From Escherichia phage phAPEC8: DNA of 64,000 nucleotides. Of the stretch, positions 27,143 through 45,658 are shown in pieces (position 1 is the first letter of the stretch; every line of letters starts with the position of its first letter). Position numbers and translations under genes: made by a program. The stretch lies in the sequence record NC_020079.1; one strand, given 5' to 3'. Under the pieces are notes generated by a model. That model saw only the letters and a list, made by a program, of their open reading frames with translations, was not told the DNA's origin and did no database searches.

Positions 27143-27217
27143 GGCCCTGTAGCTCAATGGGAGAGCTGTCGGCTCATAACCGATAGGTAGCTGGATCGAA
27201 ACCAGCCAGGGCCACCA
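27143..27217 (+). tRNA. tRNA-Met (anticodon CAT)
   Basis: Hand-folded cloverleaf: acceptor GGCCCTG/CAGGGCC, anticodon loop CTCATAA, encoded CCA; T-loop ATCGAAA. Confidence 0.7.
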
Positions 27218-27219
27218 AC

Positions 27220-27294
27220 GTCTTTATGGTGTAATGGATAGCACAGGAGTCTTCTAAACTCTTAGTCAAGGTTCGATTCCTTGTAAAGACACCA
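27220..27294 (+). tRNA. tRNA-Arg (anticodon TCT)
   Basis: Acceptor GTCTTTA/TAAAGAC, anticodon loop CTTCTAA, T-arm CAAGG-TTCGATT-CCTTG, CCA. Confidence 0.7.
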
Positions 27295-27490
27295 GAACAT
27301 TTTAACATGAATTAGCTCAAGTGATTTGAACCCACTACTGATCATGGTGGCAGAGAATGAGGCAAGTATGTCAGACATTATAAACAAAGGCCACGGTTAC
27401 ATTAGAAGACATAAATGCTCGAAGAGCACCGTTCGTGGAGAACGGGGGTTGGTGGAGTCACCATTCATGGTAAAATGTTTTAAAAAACTA

Positions 27491-27520
27491 TTGACAACTA
27501 ACATTATTTTATGTTAGATT
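27491..27520 (+). promoter_or_regulatory. sigma70-like promoter inside the tRNA operon
   Basis: CTATTGACA, 17-nt spacer, TTAGAT/TAGATT -10; a few nt upstream of tRNA-Ser. Confidence 0.45.
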
Positions 27521-39000: not shown

Positions 39001-39045
39001 CTTGCATAAACTTTGTTTTTGATGTATACTAAAAAGGAGATACAA

Positions 39046-39462
39046 GTGTTACTAGATCAATTTACTCTCCTTGATCTAACTGAATACCAAGGTCGTAGAC
39101 GAGTCTACAAAGAGGCCGTTGGTTCAGTTATTGCTAACTTAGAAAGTAGTGTAGAATATGAACCATTTACTATTGAAGCTGCAAGCTTACAACCGATATC
39201 TGGTAAAACACTGAATGCACTACCTGAAGGTTACAGATCTAAGGCTCAATATAGTTTCTGGACTAAAACAGAAATGAAGGGGTTACAACAAGGAACAGAA
39301 CAGTTATCAGATCAGATATTGATAGATGGTAAATGGTATTCTGTTTATTCCCTTAAAGATTGGACCAGAACATCTTTCTTAGTCCATCATCACTGTGTTG
39401 CAATATTAGATGATCAAAACAACTCCTGGTCTTATGGAACAGAAGGAGGAAATTTTGGCTAA
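39046..39462 (+). CDS. hypothetical structural protein
   Basis: Start moved to the GTG at 39046 with AAGGAGA RBS. Confidence 0.35.
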   Translation: MLLDQFTLLDLTEYQGRRRVYKEAVGSVIANLESSVEYEPFTIEAASLQPISGKTLNALPEGYRSKAQYSFWTKTEMKGLQQGTEQLSDQILIDGKWYSVYSLKDWTRTSFLVHHHCVAILDDQNNSWSYGTEGGNFG

Positions 39463-40093
39463 TATTTACCAACAAATAGAAGCATACGAAAATGCCATCT
39501 ACTTAAATATAGGTGGCTTCCTTCAAGAATTAGTGGGGTTGCCAGTCTATGTTATGGATAAGCCATTCATTAAACCGGATACTCCTTACCTAGCACTACG
39601 TATTATCACTTCCAGCGATTCTGGAGGTTGGTCTTACCGAAGCTCTATTCAAAATGATATGTATTCCTACGAGATGGATAATACCTACGAGATTGAACTT
39701 GTAGCCTATCGTGGAAGACCTACCACTTTGATGAGCTATGTTCTGGCTGCTCTCCGTGGTGCAGAGGAATTAAAATACAAACATCTCTATTCTAAAGGTC
39801 TTGGTTTTTTAGGAGCCTCTAATATAGCTCAAGCCAATACAATTGTAGACGGAGATAAGACTGAATTAAGAGCGCGTATGGTTATGACGTTCAACACTCG
39901 TATGAGTATTGAAGATATTGCTACTACACCAATAGAAGCAATCAACATGCACATCCGTTCATTCAGAGATAGTTACAATGATCCTATCCCTTTAGATTTA
40001 ATTCTAAACAGGGTTTATGCAATTACTTTGGTTCCAGGCGAATACTCGTCAGTTAATCAAAATGGATCATTATTTAACAACCCTACCGAATAA
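39434..40093 (+). CDS. hypothetical neck or tail-completion protein
   Basis: Start uncertain (ATG 39434, or TTG 39455 after AAGGAGG); precedes the sheath gene. Confidence 0.35.
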   Translation: MEQKEEILANIYQQIEAYENAIYLNIGGFLQELVGLPVYVMDKPFIKPDTPYLALRIITSSDSGGWSYRSSIQNDMYSYEMDNTYEIELVAYRGRPTTLMSYVLAALRGAEELKYKHLYSKGLGFLGASNIAQANTIVDGDKTELRARMVMTFNTRMSIEDIATTPIEAINMHIRSFRDSYNDPIPLDLILNRVYAITLVPGEYSSVNQNGSLFNNPTE

Positions 40094-40127: not shown

Positions 40128-41501
40128 ATGGCAACTTTTCGTGAAAAGGTAGCAACCGTAACTTTACTGTATGGTGCTACATCAATTCGTGAAACCCAGT
40201 TCGATATTCCCCTGATCCTTACAGGTCAGAACGTAACTGGCGAAGCGATTCAATATTACTCTTCTTCCGATGCACTTTTGGAAGCAGGTTATGGATTAAA
40301 TGATCCAGCGTATATTATGGCAGTCAAACTGTTTAACGGTTTGTTCCCACCAGATCAAGTCATGGTTGGTAAGCGTGAAGTTACAAACTTTACTCTAACT
40401 CCAATCGTAGAAGATAGTGCAACTTACACAATTACCATCAAAAATGGTACCAAGAAAAAAGAATTTAAATTCATTGCTGATGACACTGCAACTGCACAAG
40501 AGATTGTAGTTGGTCTGACTGAAATGATCAATGCAGATCTTGTTTATGGCCCACTGTTTACAGTAGCTAACAACGGTGCTGCAATGACTTTCACTCCAGT
40601 AGAAGGTAAGTTTGGTTCTATTGACAGCACAGGTTTCACTCAAGAAACTGTCTATGCTAATGCTATTACGGAAGATATTGCTGCTCTGCATGATATTGAT
40701 AGTAGCTGGTTCTGGACCCTTTCAGATTCCCATGAAACAGAAGATGTTCTAGCTTTGGCTGCATGGGTAGAAGAGAATGATAAAGTTTACTTCTTCTCTA
40801 GCTCTGAACCTGGAATTAAAACGAAAGCAGAAGATAACGTTCTGGAACGACTGAATGACCTCGGTTATAATAACACTTGCTTTGCTTTGTGGATGACCGA
40901 TGCAGATTCTGTATTCCCAGAAGCAGCAGTTGTTGGTGCAATCTGTTCTCGTCAACCTGGTTTAACTACTCTTCACGGTAAAACACTGGTAGGCGTAGAG
41001 ATCGAGAAACTGGATCAGACTTCGGAAAACAATATTGTTCAACAGAACGGTAACATCTATCGTAAAGAGCATGGAACTCTGTTCTATCGTGACGGATTGA
41101 TGGTTAGCGGTTTCTTTGTTGACTATGTTGTTCATGCTTTGTGGTTTAAAGCTCGCACAGAAGAATCACTGTTTACACTGTTTAAACAACAGTCTATGCT
41201 GGGTGGTGGTGTTCGTGCTACTTCAAATGGTCTGGCTTTGATTCGACAAGCTGTTCTGGCTAACCCGATCCAAGTAGGTATCCTCAACGGTTCCATCGCT
41301 AATGAAGTTGTTACTTCTGAAGAGACTGGTTTGCGTGTCGATCTGAAACCTATCGTTTATATTCCTTCTCGTGCCGATATGACTGATGCGCAAATCAATG
41401 CTCGTCTGGTCGATGGGATGAAGATTGAATATGTTTACGCTGGCTTCTTCCATTACGTTAAAGTTCAGGTTAACGTCCTGACTAACCGTACTGCAAACTA
41501 A
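40128..41501 (+). CDS. tail sheath protein
   Basis: 457 aa; high-expression codon bias; followed by tube, chaperone and tape-measure genes in canonical contractile-tail order. Confidence 0.55.
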   Translation: MATFREKVATVTLLYGATSIRETQFDIPLILTGQNVTGEAIQYYSSSDALLEAGYGLNDPAYIMAVKLFNGLFPPDQVMVGKREVTNFTLTPIVEDSATYTITIKNGTKKKEFKFIADDTATAQEIVVGLTEMINADLVYGPLFTVANNGAAMTFTPVEGKFGSIDSTGFTQETVYANAITEDIAALHDIDSSWFWTLSDSHETEDVLALAAWVEENDKVYFFSSSEPGIKTKAEDNVLERLNDLGYNNTCFALWMTDADSVFPEAAVVGAICSRQPGLTTLHGKTLVGVEIEKLDQTSENNIVQQNGNIYRKEHGTLFYRDGLMVSGFFVDYVVHALWFKARTEESLFTLFKQQSMLGGGVRATSNGLALIRQAVLANPIQVGILNGSIANEVVTSEETGLRVDLKPIVYIPSRADMTDAQINARLVDGMKIEYVYAGFFHYVKVQVNVLTNRTAN

Positions 41502-41547
41502 TACGGCGGGGGTTAAGCCCCCGTTATCAAAATAAAGAGGATCTATA

Positions 41548-42027
41548 ATGGATAAAATGCTTACTGGCGTAATGGCCTACGACCCATCTCAAGTTATCCT
41601 TTCATTAGGTGGTTGGGAACCGTGGGGTTTTGCGGCTGATACTAAAATCGTTATTGCTAAATCTAACGATATTATCAACCCTTATTCAGGGACTGATGGC
41701 GACGTTTCACTAGCTTTGAGTCGTAACCGTTTAGGAACACTCACAATGTCTTTGCAACGCACATCTCCAGCTAACGAAGTACTTGCAACATATGCACAAA
41801 CAATGTATTCTACTCGTCAAGTAGCGTTCAGTGTTTACTTGGAAGACCCACGTGGCTATTACATTAGCACGATTGGATGGATTCAAAGTCAGCCTGAAGA
41901 TACTATTGGCGAAATGATTACAGAGAACCAATGGGTTATTGGTCTTAAAGATGCAAGCCTTCTGCGTAATGAAGTTGGTGTAGGTTTGAGCACCCTTAAC
42001 TCAATCTCTGCTCTGACAATTCAATAA
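41548..42027 (+). CDS. tail tube protein
   Basis: 159 aa gene immediately after the sheath gene; terminator hairpin downstream. Confidence 0.5.
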   Translation: MDKMLTGVMAYDPSQVILSLGGWEPWGFAADTKIVIAKSNDIINPYSGTDGDVSLALSRNRLGTLTMSLQRTSPANEVLATYAQTMYSTRQVAFSVYLEDPRGYYISTIGWIQSQPEDTIGEMITENQWVIGLKDASLLRNEVGVGLSTLNSISALTIQ

Positions 42028-42034
42028 TAAATAA

Positions 42035-42056
42035 AGGGCAGAAATGCCCTTTTTAT
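42035..42056 (+). terminator. rho-independent terminator after the tube gene
   Basis: AGGGCA-GAAA-TGCCCT hairpin followed by TTTTT. Confidence 0.55.
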
Positions 42057-42072
42057 CATTAGAGAGGAAAAT

Positions 42073-42555
42073 ATGTCACAAGAACAAGATAACACAATTC
42101 AAAAATATGCTCGACCAGAAGAAGTAGTTGAGATTCCGTTAGATGGAAACAGATCTGTTACTTTCCGTATTATGAAGTGGAGTCCATCTAAAGTGTTTGA
42201 CAGGATTCCAGAATTAGGTAGTGTTCTGGTTGTTCCTATGACTATGTATAGCACAGCAACAATGTCCGCAGACGAAGACCTTGAGTCACGTATTGCTATG
42301 GCACTGATCCAACTTTTTGCAGGTTTGGAAGAAAAGAATTTAACTGTCTTTTTGCGTAAAATTTTAGATGAGGTTTATACTCAAGACGGTTATAACGTTG
42401 CAGAAAATTTTGATGAATTATTTATGGCTCACCCAGAACTAGTGTTAGATCTTACGGCTAAAGTTCTGGAGGTAAACTACGGCCCTTTTTTCAAACGAGG
42501 TTTCGGAAAACTGTTCACACAGCTTCAGGCGATGACGAGTTTAGCAGCAAATTAA
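42073..42555 (+). CDS. tail assembly chaperone (lambda G-like, zero-frame product)
   Basis: 160 aa ORF directly upstream of the tape measure gene; contains a slippery heptamer near its 3' end. Confidence 0.5.
   Translation: MSQEQDNTIQKYARPEEVVEIPLDGNRSVTFRIMKWSPSKVFDRIPELGSVLVVPMTMYSTATMSADEDLESRIAMALIQLFAGLEEKNLTVFLRKILDEVYTQDGYNVAENFDELFMAHPELVLDLTAKVLEVNYGPFFKRGFGKLFTQLQAMTSLAAN
42486..42492 (+). other. -1 programmed ribosomal frameshift slippery heptamer T_TTT_TTC
   Basis: X_XXY_YYZ heptamer in the zero frame of the chaperone gene; the -1 frame is open from 42462 to 42821. Confidence 0.5.
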
Positions 42556-42821
42556 CACCTGCGATTGAACATGCTATCGACACAGCAACGAAAACCCTTA
42601 CTTTGAAGTGGTATGAGGTTATTCTTTGCAAAGTCGTTAAAGATACCTCGGAAACACTGAAAACATTGGATAACTACGGTGTAGATTATCTTTTAAAACT
42701 ATATGAGTATTTAACATACGAAGAGTATGTTGAAGCCATGTATGTTAAAGACACTTCAATAAAGAGAAAACATCAAAACCAGACAAATAAAATGTCAGAT
42801 TTGTTTAAGAAACTTGTTTAA
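42492..42821 (+). CDS. frameshift extension of the tail assembly chaperone (GT-like)
   Basis: -1 frame open across the overlap and continuous with the track ORF 42603..42821; fusion about 249 aa. Confidence 0.45.
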   Translation, partial: QTRFRKTVHTASGDDEFSSKLTPAIEHAIDTATKTLTLKWYEVILCKVVKDTSETLKTLDNYGVDYLLKLYEYLTYEEYVEAMYVKDTSIKRKHQNQTNKMSDLFKKLV

Positions 42822-42841
42822 TCCAACACGAGGAACATACT

Positions 42842-44830
42842 TTGTTAGAAATTAACGCCTCCAAAATTAGTAACGTGGTTACGTTTAAGGTGGACAAGAA
42901 CAGTCTCAAGGAAGCAAAAGATGCCGTGTTGAGTGTTCAGAAGTTTGCAAATAAAATGCAACCCACTATGAACATGACCAAGTTTAGACAGCAAATGAAA
43001 GAGATTGAGCGTGAACTTAAGAAAGCTCAAACTCAAAGTCAAAAACCTATGCGAGCACCTACTCCCGCTGGAGCGGGTGCTCCTGTAGGAGGATCTGGTA
43101 GACCTAGAACTCCTAAAACCCCGCAAGGAAGAGAAGAAGAAAAAGCTCGTAAAGCTGCTGAACGCGAAGCTAAAGCAGCAGCACGTAGGGAAGATTTAGG
43201 TAATCTTCGTTTGCAGAACTTTAACTATCGAGCAAGAGCATTTAGTAAAGCTAGTCCTGGCGCTATGCAAGAAGCTAGAGACGTTATGGGTAAAGCTGTA
43301 GAACAATACAAAAAGGGTGAAATAACTCTTCAACGTATGAACCAAGCTCTTGCTCACCAGTTAGATGCCTTACGCAGATCTCATCGTGAAAAGAATGCTG
43401 AAATAGAAGACGAGGTTCGCGGTCGTCGCCGTATTCGTAGAGAGCTAGAAGCAGAAGCTAAAATGCGTATACGTATGCGAAATCGTGAACTTAGAGATAT
43501 AGAACGCAACCGTAAGCGTGAATTAGCTCAACAAAAACGTGATCGTGATCGTCGATATGGACAATTAAAAGAAGGTGCAGCAGGTCTTAATCCACGCATG
43601 ATTGCATCCTCTTTAATAGGTGCTGGGCTGTTTGCAGGTGGTTCTGTAGTTGGTAACACGTTGATGAATACTAACGAAAGAATTAAACTTGTAAGTCGTG
43701 GTGCTGAAAACGTTCAGACAAACGCCAACGCTATTTTGGCAATGACAGCTTGGGGTGAACAGAACGGTGTAGACTCTGCAAATATTATTAAGTCAATAGA
43801 TAATATTAAAGACGTTCGTGAACGTCTTGGTAATACAGTTTTAGCCTCAAAATGGAATGAGAAAGAAGGGAAGTGGAAAGGCGGTGATAATGGCATAAAT
43901 GACATTATGAACTTGTTTGGATGGAATCCAGAACAGCTTAAACCTTTACAGAACGATCCTTTAGCTTTTATTCAGGCTACTGTTAATGAAGGTGAGCGTC
44001 GAGGTATGAACTCTGCTCAAATCGGGCGACTTCTTGAAAACCTTGGTGATGACCTTATGCACTACCAACGTATGTTTAGTAAAAACGGCGAAGGGTATAA
44101 TGAAGTATTGAAAATGCTTCAAAGAACAGGTGCAACATTAACTCAAGAACAAATAGATGCTTCTAAAGAGTTTACTCGTTTTGCTGCAACAGTTCAGCTT
44201 GTAGGTCAAGGTATGCAGAACCATTTCTTAGAGGGTTTTGTAAAAGCTTTACCTAAAGATGATTCTTGGTTGGATAACGTTAAAGTGCTAGATCAGTTCG
44301 CCAAAGATTTAGGTGAAGAACTTGGTAAAACAACAGTTCAACTTGGTGGTTTTGCTAAAGAATTAGGAGATGGTTTCGGATCTTTTACCAATTGGCTTAA
44401 AGAAACATTCCCAGATACCTTCGGAGACAACACAGATCCTAATAAATCTTTGGCACAAAAAGCATACGAGGCAACGCAAAGTGGAGACAGCAATCCTGTA
44501 GCAGATTGGTTGTACAATTTAACAGGTATTGATACACAAGATATTGGTCGTATGTGGAGAGGAGAAGAAACAAGGACACGTGCTTTTGGATTTGGTAATC
44601 CTCTTGAAGATTTACGTGAATCAGCCTATACACCTAACGTAAGTTTGGCTCGTAATCAACCTGTTGTTGAGAATACGGTAGCAATACCAAGTGATCTTAT
44701 CAAAGTTACGATCAGCCCTTCTTCAGAGTTTGGAAATATTCTTGATGCAAGAATTCAAAATAGCGGAAATAGCATTTTCCAACGTTTGTCTCTTTCAACT
44801 CTAAGTGGACAATCTAACACTGGTGGTTAA
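42842..44830 (+). CDS. tail tape measure protein
   Basis: 662 aa; Arg/Lys/Glu-rich N-terminal third; follows the chaperone pair; TTG start. Confidence 0.7.
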   Translation: MLEINASKISNVVTFKVDKNSLKEAKDAVLSVQKFANKMQPTMNMTKFRQQMKEIERELKKAQTQSQKPMRAPTPAGAGAPVGGSGRPRTPKTPQGREEEKARKAAEREAKAAARREDLGNLRLQNFNYRARAFSKASPGAMQEARDVMGKAVEQYKKGEITLQRMNQALAHQLDALRRSHREKNAEIEDEVRGRRRIRRELEAEAKMRIRMRNRELRDIERNRKRELAQQKRDRDRRYGQLKEGAAGLNPRMIASSLIGAGLFAGGSVVGNTLMNTNERIKLVSRGAENVQTNANAILAMTAWGEQNGVDSANIIKSIDNIKDVRERLGNTVLASKWNEKEGKWKGGDNGINDIMNLFGWNPEQLKPLQNDPLAFIQATVNEGERRGMNSAQIGRLLENLGDDLMHYQRMFSKNGEGYNEVLKMLQRTGATLTQEQIDASKEFTRFAATVQLVGQGMQNHFLEGFVKALPKDDSWLDNVKVLDQFAKDLGEELGKTTVQLGGFAKELGDGFGSFTNWLKETFPDTFGDNTDPNKSLAQKAYEATQSGDSNPVADWLYNLTGIDTQDIGRMWRGEETRTRAFGFGNPLEDLRESAYTPNVSLARNQPVVENTVAIPSDLIKVTISPSSEFGNILDARIQNSGNSIFQRLSLSTLSGQSNTGG

Positions 44831-44837
44831 TAAAATA

Positions 44838-44860
44838 CCTCGCTTCGGCGGGGTTTTTTC
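44838..44860 (+). terminator. rho-independent terminator after the tape measure gene
   Basis: CCTCGC-TTCG-GCGGGG hairpin followed by TTTTTT. Confidence 0.6.
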
Positions 44861-44867
44861 GTTTCCC

Positions 44868-44897
44868 TTGACACGAAGTTTCTATATGTGTTACAAT
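44868..44897 (+). promoter_or_regulatory. sigma70-like promoter for the baseplate genes
   Basis: TTGACA, 18-nt spacer, TACAAT. Confidence 0.5.
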
Positions 44898-44956
44898 AAT
44901 CAATATGGGAAGATCTTGCATCTTCCTTTTGGCATTATCATTACTACGAGGTTATC

Positions 44957-45658
44957 ATGGCAGCAATGACTCCACAACAGTCGGTGAGAGCCGTCTATAA
45001 GGCAGAACAGGAAATCAACTCTACCGAGAATAAAAATACCTCGGCATCTACTGTAAAGGGTGATAATGGTTTCTGCATTTTAGCAAGTGTTTATAATAGT
45101 TCAAGTGATCAATATATTCAAAACTTTAAAGCAATTACTTTCGATTCAGTCCCTGAAATAGGTGTAACTCGTGAGGCAGATGTTACAAGTTTTCCAGTAG
45201 AATCAGGATCAGATGTAAGTGACCACGTTCAAATAAAAAACAACAGATTTAAACTTTCAGGTATAATTACCGAAACACCAATTCGGCTTATGCGAGATCA
45301 ACTATACAGCGCAGGTGTAAATGGGGCAAGGATTTCTCAAGCAATAGAATATCTAGATCAAATATTTGAGTCAAGACAACCAATAGTTCTTTTGACAGAA
45401 CACAGGACTTTTGAAAATGTTATTCTGAAAGGCTACTCTTATGATTATAAATCTGAATTTGCTATGCAATTTGATTTAGAGTTCGAACAAATTCGTCTAG
45501 TCTCTAAGGCCACTACTAATGCTATTGCTGTAAAAACAGCACCAAATAAGTCAACTGGTGGTGATGTGAAAGGTCAAGTCGCTTCTAATGGTCCTAAGTC
45601 AGATATTACAGTAAGAACTGCTGAAGCTACTAACACCCCAACAAACAACGGAGGTTAA
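44957..45658 (+). CDS. hypothetical tail or baseplate protein (233 aa)
   Basis: ORF track; first gene after the tape measure gene. Confidence 0.35.
   Translation: MAAMTPQQSVRAVYKAEQEINSTENKNTSASTVKGDNGFCILASVYNSSSDQYIQNFKAITFDSVPEIGVTREADVTSFPVESGSDVSDHVQIKNNRFKLSGIITETPIRLMRDQLYSAGVNGARISQAIEYLDQIFESRQPIVLLTEHRTFENVILKGYSYDYKSEFAMQFDLEFEQIRLVSKATTNAIAVKTAPNKSTGGDVKGQVASNGPKSDITVRTAEATNTPTNNGG

Follow-up and report, generated by a model that had tools for sequence, protein, structure and literature searches.

The subject of this work is the tail assembly chaperone (TAC) gene of Escherichia phage phAPEC8, which lies in a stretch of 64,000 nucleotides (nt) from the sequence record NC_020079.1; this stretch was analysed at its full length and is called the window here. 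It is highly probable that a programmed -1 ribosomal shift at a slippery run near the end of this gene yields a fusion protein of 249 amino acids (aa) beside the 160-aa short chaperone. The zero-frame open reading frame (ORF) occupies 42073-42555 on the + strand, and its codons CCT TTT TTC (42484-42492) hold TTTTTTC in the X_XXY_YYZ register. The initial annotation, made from the letters of the sequence, had placed the heptamer T_TTT_TTC at 42486..42492 inside the zero-frame chaperone ORF, and both register and coordinates proved exact. It did not mention a second canonical heptamer, C_CCT_TTT (42483-42489), which overlaps the first one within the slippery run CCCTTTTTTC (42483..42492, + strand). 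Because the run is homopolymeric, a slip on either heptamer would give an identical protein.

Regarding the second frame, the -1 frame is preceded by the stop TAA 42459-42461 and meets its next stop at 42819-42821, thus being open from 42462 through 42821, as had been claimed. Both frames are open together over 94 nt (42462..42555), until the zero-frame stop TAA 42553-42555, and the -1 frame is continuous with the 72-aa ORF listed from the TTG at 42603. The fusion length of roughly 249 aa was likewise reproduced, since a slip at the heptamer joins 140 chaperone residues to the 109 codons of the -1 frame extension (42492..42821, stop included), with the junction ...NYGPFF|QTRF.... The predicted tryptic peptides are VLEVNYGPFFQTR for the fusion and VLEVNYGPFFK for the short form, with TVHTASGDDEFSSK derived from 42492-42602.

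The heptamer by itself means little, as in-frame X_XXY_YYZ heptamers are frequent in the window (72 in 63 ORFs), and heptamer statistics were consequently rejected as evidence. Among these 72, it alone leads into a long -1 frame, with 109 open codons versus 26 for the runner-up. Given a -1 frame stop rate of 0.109 per codon in the window genes, the geometric probability of 109 open codons is about 4e-6; the chance of the run is given by this geometric estimate only, and an empirical count of long runs was dropped because neighbouring genes overlapping in the -1 frame confound it. The long open run thus indicates that the -1 frame is coding, the question being whether it is reached by a frameshift or from a start of its own.

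As measured in E. coli, heptamers of the H_HH.U_UU.Y type, including U_UU.U_UU.C and C_CC.U_UU.U, are among the most efficient; even with no stimulator present, U_UU.U_UU.C exceeds the background level of shifting, and insertion sequence (IS) elements employ it (PMC4066793). Other candidates at the locus were discarded: AAATTTT (42405-42411) lies upstream of the -1 stop at 42459, and a shift there would terminate at once, while the tetramers T_TTC (42501-42504) and A_AAA (42507-42510) of the overlap are of a kind that hardly shifts unless a stimulator is present (PMC4066793).

The conservation of the site was followed across a wide group of relatives. A tblastn search with the 249-aa fusion returned 357 phage records, 134 of which match at least 80% of it as two pieces in two frames, and a Vequintavirinae fusion used as query returned 499 records, with 388 matching over nearly the full length. 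Near-identical copies apart, 14 diverse GenBank relatives, 23-76% identical over the fusion, were analysed, covering Phapecoctavirus, Justusliebigvirus, FBKp34, Vequintavirus, Seunavirus, Henunavirus, Mydovirus, Avunavirus, Certrevirus and unclassified Vequintavirinae; 39 IMG/VR loci, retrieved by a peptide pattern requiring ...[CP]FF, were added to them. T_TTT_TTC stands in the zero-frame register within the -1 overlap in 14/14 GenBank relatives and 39/39 IMG/VR loci. The heptamer TTTTTTC is invariant in 34 unique contexts from Stephanstirmvirinae, Vequintavirinae and metagenomic relatives, even where protein identity has fallen to 23-25%. In all 14 + 39 relatives the -1 frame becomes open 9-69 nt ahead of the heptamer and stays open beyond it for 101-128 codons. 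Its stop precedes the tape measure start by 11-57 nt in 13 of the 14 GenBank relatives, the remaining one being the Certrevirus Pectobacterium phage DU_PP_IV, which has inserted ORFs at this place: its -1 ORF stops 957 nt before the annotated tape measure start, with two extra small ORFs between chaperone and tape measure (locus L013, 2019-2977).

The codons around the run are equally informative. The codon preceding it is TGT (Cys) in 20 contexts, CCT (Pro) in 13 and AGT (Ser) in one, with T as the third base in 34/34; this T provides the X of the heptamer and lies outside the part coded by the -1 frame. Moreover, the first Phe codon of the run is TTT and the second TTC in all 34 contexts, the adjacent Tyr and Gly codons being variable. 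The TTT-TTC combination accounts for 3 of the 20 Phe-Phe pairs in window genes, and TTT is the minority Phe codon in the Vequintavirinae sample (45 vs 84). Judged from this codon choice, selection at the run is acting on nucleotides rather than on the peptide.

Both reading frames are preserved beyond the run. The alignment of the fusion goes through the junction (NYGxFF-[QHR]..RFR), where an invariant Arg-Phe, usually as RFR[KR], is followed by a variable Gly/Ser-rich linker and then by a helical domain; the total length is kept at 241-252 aa even though the linker varies. The last 72 aa of the fusion match phrog_16039 at 9.5e-45, and the conservation of the C-terminal domain starts about 18 residues upstream of the annotated TTG. 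In addition, the zero-frame tail after the run is also conserved (FF-x-K/R-x-G-F-G/A..L), with its stop 20-34 codons later in every lineage. Another short element, GGTTTCG(G), located 6-9 nt past the heptamer (window 42493-42515; loci L004-L017), shows nucleotide-level conservation in two subfamilies. Its zero-frame reading is G-F and its -1 reading R-F-R, and a T_TTC tetramer lies in register within it. As the element is absent in the Citrobacter phage Moogle, this conservation is likely to be the result of dual coding.

Three other explanations for this arrangement were weighed against the ribosomal shift. Transcriptional slippage survives best, being nonetheless improbable: RNA polymerase would add one U at the T6 run, and normal translation would then produce the same 249-aa fusion. 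The site is indeed a homopolymer run, and a small fraction of long product would suffice. One added U also gives the identical protein, the junction peptide ...GPFFQTRF... being the same for a T_TTT_TTC slip, a C_CCT_TTT slip or a one-U insertion by RNA polymerase, so that neither sequence nor junction-peptide mass spectrometry can separate the routes. However, documented bacterial slippage sites are runs of about nine A or T (PMC5009743), and the run consists of exactly six T in 34/34 unique contexts and in Moogle, never longer, though a longer run favours slippage. It is also always found in the X_XXY_YYZ register, with the preceding T kept despite the change of amino acid, which fits the re-pairing of tRNAs, and the upstream element similar to a Shine-Dalgarno (SD) sequence, described below, is a feature of ribosomes and not of polymerases.

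More doubtful still is the notion of two genes, according to which the 72-aa ORF (42603-42821) would be translated alone from TTG 42603 and the slippery run would be incidental. Many records do annotate a separate hypothetical protein at this position (as in Mt1B1_P17), TTG is in use as a start in this phage, for example by the tape measure gene at 42842, and PHROG 16039 models the 72-aa piece as a family, although it reflects those same annotations. Against this, TTG 42603 has no SD sequence, its pairing energy being +0.1 kcal/mol, whereas 60 gene starts of the window have a median of -7.1 and the neighbouring tail genes range from -5.9 to -6.6; this TTG is weaker than 93% of the window starts. 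Among 35 unique relatives no start codon for the C-terminal domain is conserved, and 8 of them have no ATG, GTG or TTG whatsoever from the slip site to 15 residues past the invariant Trp of this domain; where candidate starts are present, they are spread from -16 to +15 around that Trp, with the best SD not beyond -5.6. Lacking a conserved start, annotators picked different positions or left the region empty, as seen by the annotated starts of the relatives, which differ in alignment position, and by the GenBank records with nothing there. Furthermore, the conservation of the -1 frame reaches from the TTG back to the heptamer, including the invariant R-F after the junction, and this frame opens shortly before the heptamer in every relative. 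Least credible is a single 249-aa ORF in which the T6 run would be a sequencing error or a recent frameshift mutation, because, even with homopolymer runs as classic sites of indel errors, the same run and two-frame layout recur in Moogle and in 53 relatives that were sequenced independently from isolates and metagenomes, and the conserved zero-frame tail with its own stop excludes both an error and a decayed ORF.

Regarding stimulatory elements, an SD-like GGAGGT is located at 42468..42473 on the + strand, 13 nt 5' of the heptamer, and forms a duplex of -10.6 kcal/mol with the anti-SD sequence, being a candidate 5' stimulator of the ribosomal shift. At the position of GGAGG, anti-SD pairing of -6 kcal/mol or stronger is found in 28 of 33 unique relatives. 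The motif (42468-42472) is written by the codons CTG GAG GTA, CTG representing 16% of the Leu codons and GAG 24% of the Glu codons in the structural genes of the window; at the GGAGG column of the relatives, GAG makes up 24 of 28 Glu codons compared to those 24%. As 5' SD elements are established stimulators of -1 shifts in dnaX and many IS elements (PMC5009743), the upstream GGAGG may raise the shift rate in the way known from dnaX.

Some observations weigh against a programmed frameshift or reduce the value of the evidence for it. The initial annotation had suggested looking for a downstream stimulatory structure, and none was found by folding, RNAalifold or Rfam. The minimum free energy of 42486-42580 and 42493-42560 is no better than that of shuffled sequences (z = -0.08 and +0.95, respectively), RNAalifold on 15 relatives gave no conserved pairs 3' of the heptamer, and Rfam had no match over 42300-42900 at E <= 1. 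With no 3' structure, the efficiency may be low, and a shift rate of a few percent or less is expected. In addition, the Phe-Phe of the IMG/VR loci was ascertained by the retrieval pattern, which did not act on codon choice, and the compared sequences are phylogenetically related, their counts not being independent events. GGAGG overlaps the conserved peptide K-V-L-E-V, and selection at the RNA level may therefore explain no more than part of its conservation; the role of GGAGG is rated as a hypothesis since this peptide and shared ancestry are confounders. Finally, no published experiment was found on the fusion protein for Phapecoctavirus, Stephanstirmvirinae or Vequintavirinae.

The absence of a 3' stimulator accords with what is seen in lambda G/GT, whose shift works at a low level (PMC5009743). 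By eye, a small CGAAA/TTTCG hairpin was also seen in some Vequintavirinae, starting 2 nt past the heptamer, and was rejected as it is lost in other lineages. It is conceivable, and proposed here as a tentative idea, that a structure-free -1 shift is common to Stephanstirmvirinae, Vequintavirinae and Felix O1-like phages. It would combine the tRNA-Phe heptamer with a conserved internal SD-like element about 13 nt upstream, that is, a dnaX-style 5' stimulator in a tail gene, retained across subfamilies via the rare codons CTG GAG, and the tandem C_CCU_UUU_UUC would offer Stephanstirmvirinae two chances to slip. No tRNA-Phe is present among the 11 tRNAs of the window. These tRNA genes, on the + strand at 27143-29148, correspond to Met (two), Arg, Ser, Tyr, Asn, Thr, Gly, Gln(UUG), Pro(UGG) and Ile; among them are tRNAs that could decode CAA, the first codon of the -1 frame, and the Pro codon that precedes the slip site.

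The family of the protein is well defined for its N-terminal part. Residues 29-143 match the Pfam family PF21822 (Phage_TAC_15) with 82.7 bits, compared to a gathering cutoff of 22 (E = 4.2e-23), and this family is matched by 20/20 members of the alignment A3. When the 249-aa fusion was searched by hmmscan in Pfam-A at E <= 1, Phage_TAC_15 was the sole match, and no lambda-type chaperone family was obtained. An AlphaFold2 model of the fusion, with a mean predicted local distance difference test score of 73, shows a folded N-terminal domain with residue 139 as the end of its last helix, and the slip falls at 140/141; residues 142-158 are disordered, and 163-248 form a helical C-terminal domain. 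The best matches among predicted viral structures are chaperones, including the 212-aa Moogle 'tape measure chaperone' (Foldseek E = 2e-4). There was no sequence match in the Protein Data Bank (PDB) and no significant Foldseek match to solved structures, for which reason the fold could not be tied to a solved chaperone; the TAC of HK97 (2OB9) was discarded as a structural relative, with a Foldseek E of only 2.2.

As for the mode of action, we infer that the shift is ribosomal, with most ribosomes remaining in the zero frame on 42073-42555 and releasing the 160-aa short chaperone. Two tRNA-Phe would be paired with UUU in the P site (42487-42489) and UUC in the A site (42490-42492), and few ribosomes would slip by -1 on U_UUU_UUC, a slip on the neighbouring C_CCU_UUU having an equal outcome. 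The shifted ribosomes would read CAA at 42492 and go onward to the stop at 42819-42821, producing a fusion composed of the chaperone domain (1-140), the RFRK motif with a flexible linker and the helical C-terminal domain. If lambda gpG/gpGT is taken as the model, the tape measure protein would be covered by short and long chaperone alike, and the tube protein would be recruited by the domain that only the minor long form has, the tail then polymerising around the tape measure; neither of the chaperone forms would stay in the virion. Short and long forms presumably act in a lambda-like manner in tube and sheath assembly around the 662-aa tape measure.

With a genome of about 150 kb and a contractile tail, the source phage is an E. 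coli myovirus of the phAPEC8-like type (Phapecoctavirus, Stephanstirmvirinae), and the region 41500-45000 has 99% identity to many phAPEC8-like E. coli phages. By profile searches, the order on the + strand is sheath, tube, TAC, -1-frame ORF, tape measure and baseplate genes, so the gene order and family assignment agree with the claim that the chaperone lies upstream of the tape measure gene. The tail sheath gene (40128..41501) matches phrog_205 at 2.9e-100 and the Pfam family DUF3383 at 7e-20; the tail tube gene (41548..42027) matches phrog_280 and, weakly, the Pfam family KPP10_Orf10, and carries the tail tube label in SKA64 and Paula. The zero-frame chaperone (TAC-N, 42073..42555) matches phrog_3840 at 2.8e-55 besides Phage_TAC_15, and its start has an SD energy of -6.4 kcal/mol. 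The tape measure gene (42842..44830, TTG start) begins 20 nt past the -1 frame stop with an SD of -5.9, and it matches phrog_16051, tail length tape measure protein, at E = 0.

A consensus scan located two terminator-like hairpins on the + strand, one in the gap between tube and chaperone (42033..42052), where ASO2A and Paula also have an annotated terminator, and the other at 44837..44854, with a terminator in the ASO2A record. They flank the chaperone-tape measure unit, and, being directly 3' of the tube and tape measure genes, respectively, they suggest that chaperone and tape measure form one unit. Sheath and tube are highly expressed genes, and the unit is probably reliant on read-through from them.

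Elsewhere in the window, two other pairs of overlapping ORFs were noticed. On the + strand, 30014-30406 and 30297-30641 share 110 nt and lie immediately before a 691-aa ORF (30651-32726); an in-frame TTTCCCC is located at 30388-30394, and the overlap may stem from a mis-called start or be another recoding site. In the tail module upstream of the sheath, 39013-39462 (TTG start) and 39410-40093 overlap by 53 nt, and the terminal -1 frame of the first ORF enters the second.

About 500 public phage genomes hold the chaperone locus in two frames, and the main value of recognising the frameshift site is for annotation, where two 'genes' can be merged into the correct product pair. The long chaperone form is missing from every Stephanstirmvirinae and Vequintavirinae record inspected or listed, and in these records the C-terminal domain appears as a separate hypothetical protein with an arbitrary start or is unannotated. 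Recognition of the site also gives a function to the PHROG families 16039 and 10409, now of 'unknown function', and the pattern N-[YF]-G-x-F-F on T_TTT_TTC serves as a slip-site marker across several subfamilies, many of whose phages are used as therapeutic phages. Some host labels met in the records look doubtful: those named 'Campylobacter phage' (MG0656xx), 'Acinetobacter phage vB_AbaM_ABPW7' (OP562383.1) and 'Klebsiella phage ZCKP1' (MH252123.1) are nearly identical at this locus to rV5-like or phAPEC8-like phages of E. coli.

In the literature library that was searched, no paper was found reporting a chaperone frameshift in Phapecoctavirus, rV5, phi92 or PVP-SE1-like phages. To judge by the sequences compared, the frameshift site is genuine and strongly conserved, and its mechanism is already well known; a mild novelty lies only in the tandem heptamer and in the conservation of an SD-like element upstream of it. 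The site thereby adds a well-conserved, structure-free example with tRNA-Phe and a possible 5' SD stimulator, and the understanding of tail assembly is unchanged by it.

The functional reference is phage lambda, whose heptamer G_GGA_AAG involves tRNA-Lys, whereas the site described here has U_UUU_UUC and tRNA-Phe; no 3' structural stimulator is known at the lambda G/GT site. The G/GT-type arrangement was defined by Xu, Hendrix and Duda (2004), and the lambda work by Levin, Hendrix and Casjens (1993) and Xu, Hendrix and Duda (2004, 2013, 2014) is summarised in PMC5009743. Four of the features that define this type are found in the window, namely two ORFs between tube and tape measure, an in-register heptamer, a conserved layout and a downstream ORF without conserved initiation signals; a further one, a fusion protein produced in a low fixed ratio and needed for tail assembly, would be predicted. 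As in lambda gpG/gpGT, a -1 slip on a heptamer near the end of the first of two overlapping ORFs would lead to a long form; in the presumed role, the chaperone covers the tape measure and the extra domain recruits the tube protein (PMC5009743). The initial annotation had stated that the lambda arrangement is reproduced, which holds for the layout of two overlapping ORFs between tube and tape measure with the heptamer in register but does not extend to the sequence family, which is Phage_TAC_15 of a contractile tail. Going by layout and family together, the site is an analogue of lambda G/GT and not a member of the lambda gpG/gpT sequence families. Unlike the non-contractile tail of lambda, the tail of this phage is contractile, and its site has a possible 5' SD-like element.

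Another chaperone frameshift of an enterobacterial contractile-tail phage is E/E+E' of phage P2, which has a T-rich heptamer. No match between the two sequence families was detected, and P2 is a temperate phage of 33 kb, unlike this virulent phage of 150 kb. In dnaX, the spacing between SD and heptamer falls within 10-14 nt. A strong 3' stem-loop is required in dnaX, with about 50% shifting on A_AAA_AAG, in contrast to the site described here, where 3' structure is absent. Both E. coli dnaX and this site possess an SD-like element upstream of a homopolymeric heptamer, and the efficiency of the P2-type shift is reported to be 2- to 3-fold above that of lambda (PMC5009743).

Among closer relatives, a paper of December 2025 argued computationally for a conserved -1 frameshift in Vandenendeviridae (Pakpunavirus, phage Adele) and Andersonviridae, which it placed close to Vequintavirinae, and it reports no test of the site in Vequintavirinae or Stephanstirmvirinae (PMC12846349). 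For these groups the layout is alike: next to a short chaperone, what is annotated as a downstream 'hypothetical protein' is the C-terminal domain, the -1 frame is open in all cases, and a motif of the GTTTTT type is invariant close to the 3' end (PMC12846349). The run is preceded by C in Stephanstirmvirinae (CCCTTTTTTC), compared to G in Vandenendeviridae and Andersonviridae.

Among annotated homologues, the nearest is that of Moogle, a Felix O1-like Citrobacter phage of the Ounavirinae (KM236239), whose genome announcement mentions a translational frameshift (PMC4319497) and whose joined coding sequence is annotated as 'tape measure chaperone', this frameshift being an annotation and not an experimental result. 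Moogle differs from phAPEC8 in its subfamily and its 88-kb genome, as well as in its fusion of 212 instead of 249 aa, with 24% identity. However, it shares T_TTT_TTC, a similar peptide context (LEANFGSFF vs LEVNYGPFF here) and a GGAGG at equal upstream spacing, and it is likewise a contractile-tail phage with the chaperone just before the tape measure gene. Its short form matches Phage_TAC_15 at 5e-19, and its fusion aligns with the profile of the window family over columns 80-226, which comprise the junction and the C-terminal domain (hhalign probability 96.4%, E = 1e-9). This match in both domains and at the slip site indicates that the site in the window is homologous to an already annotated frameshift.

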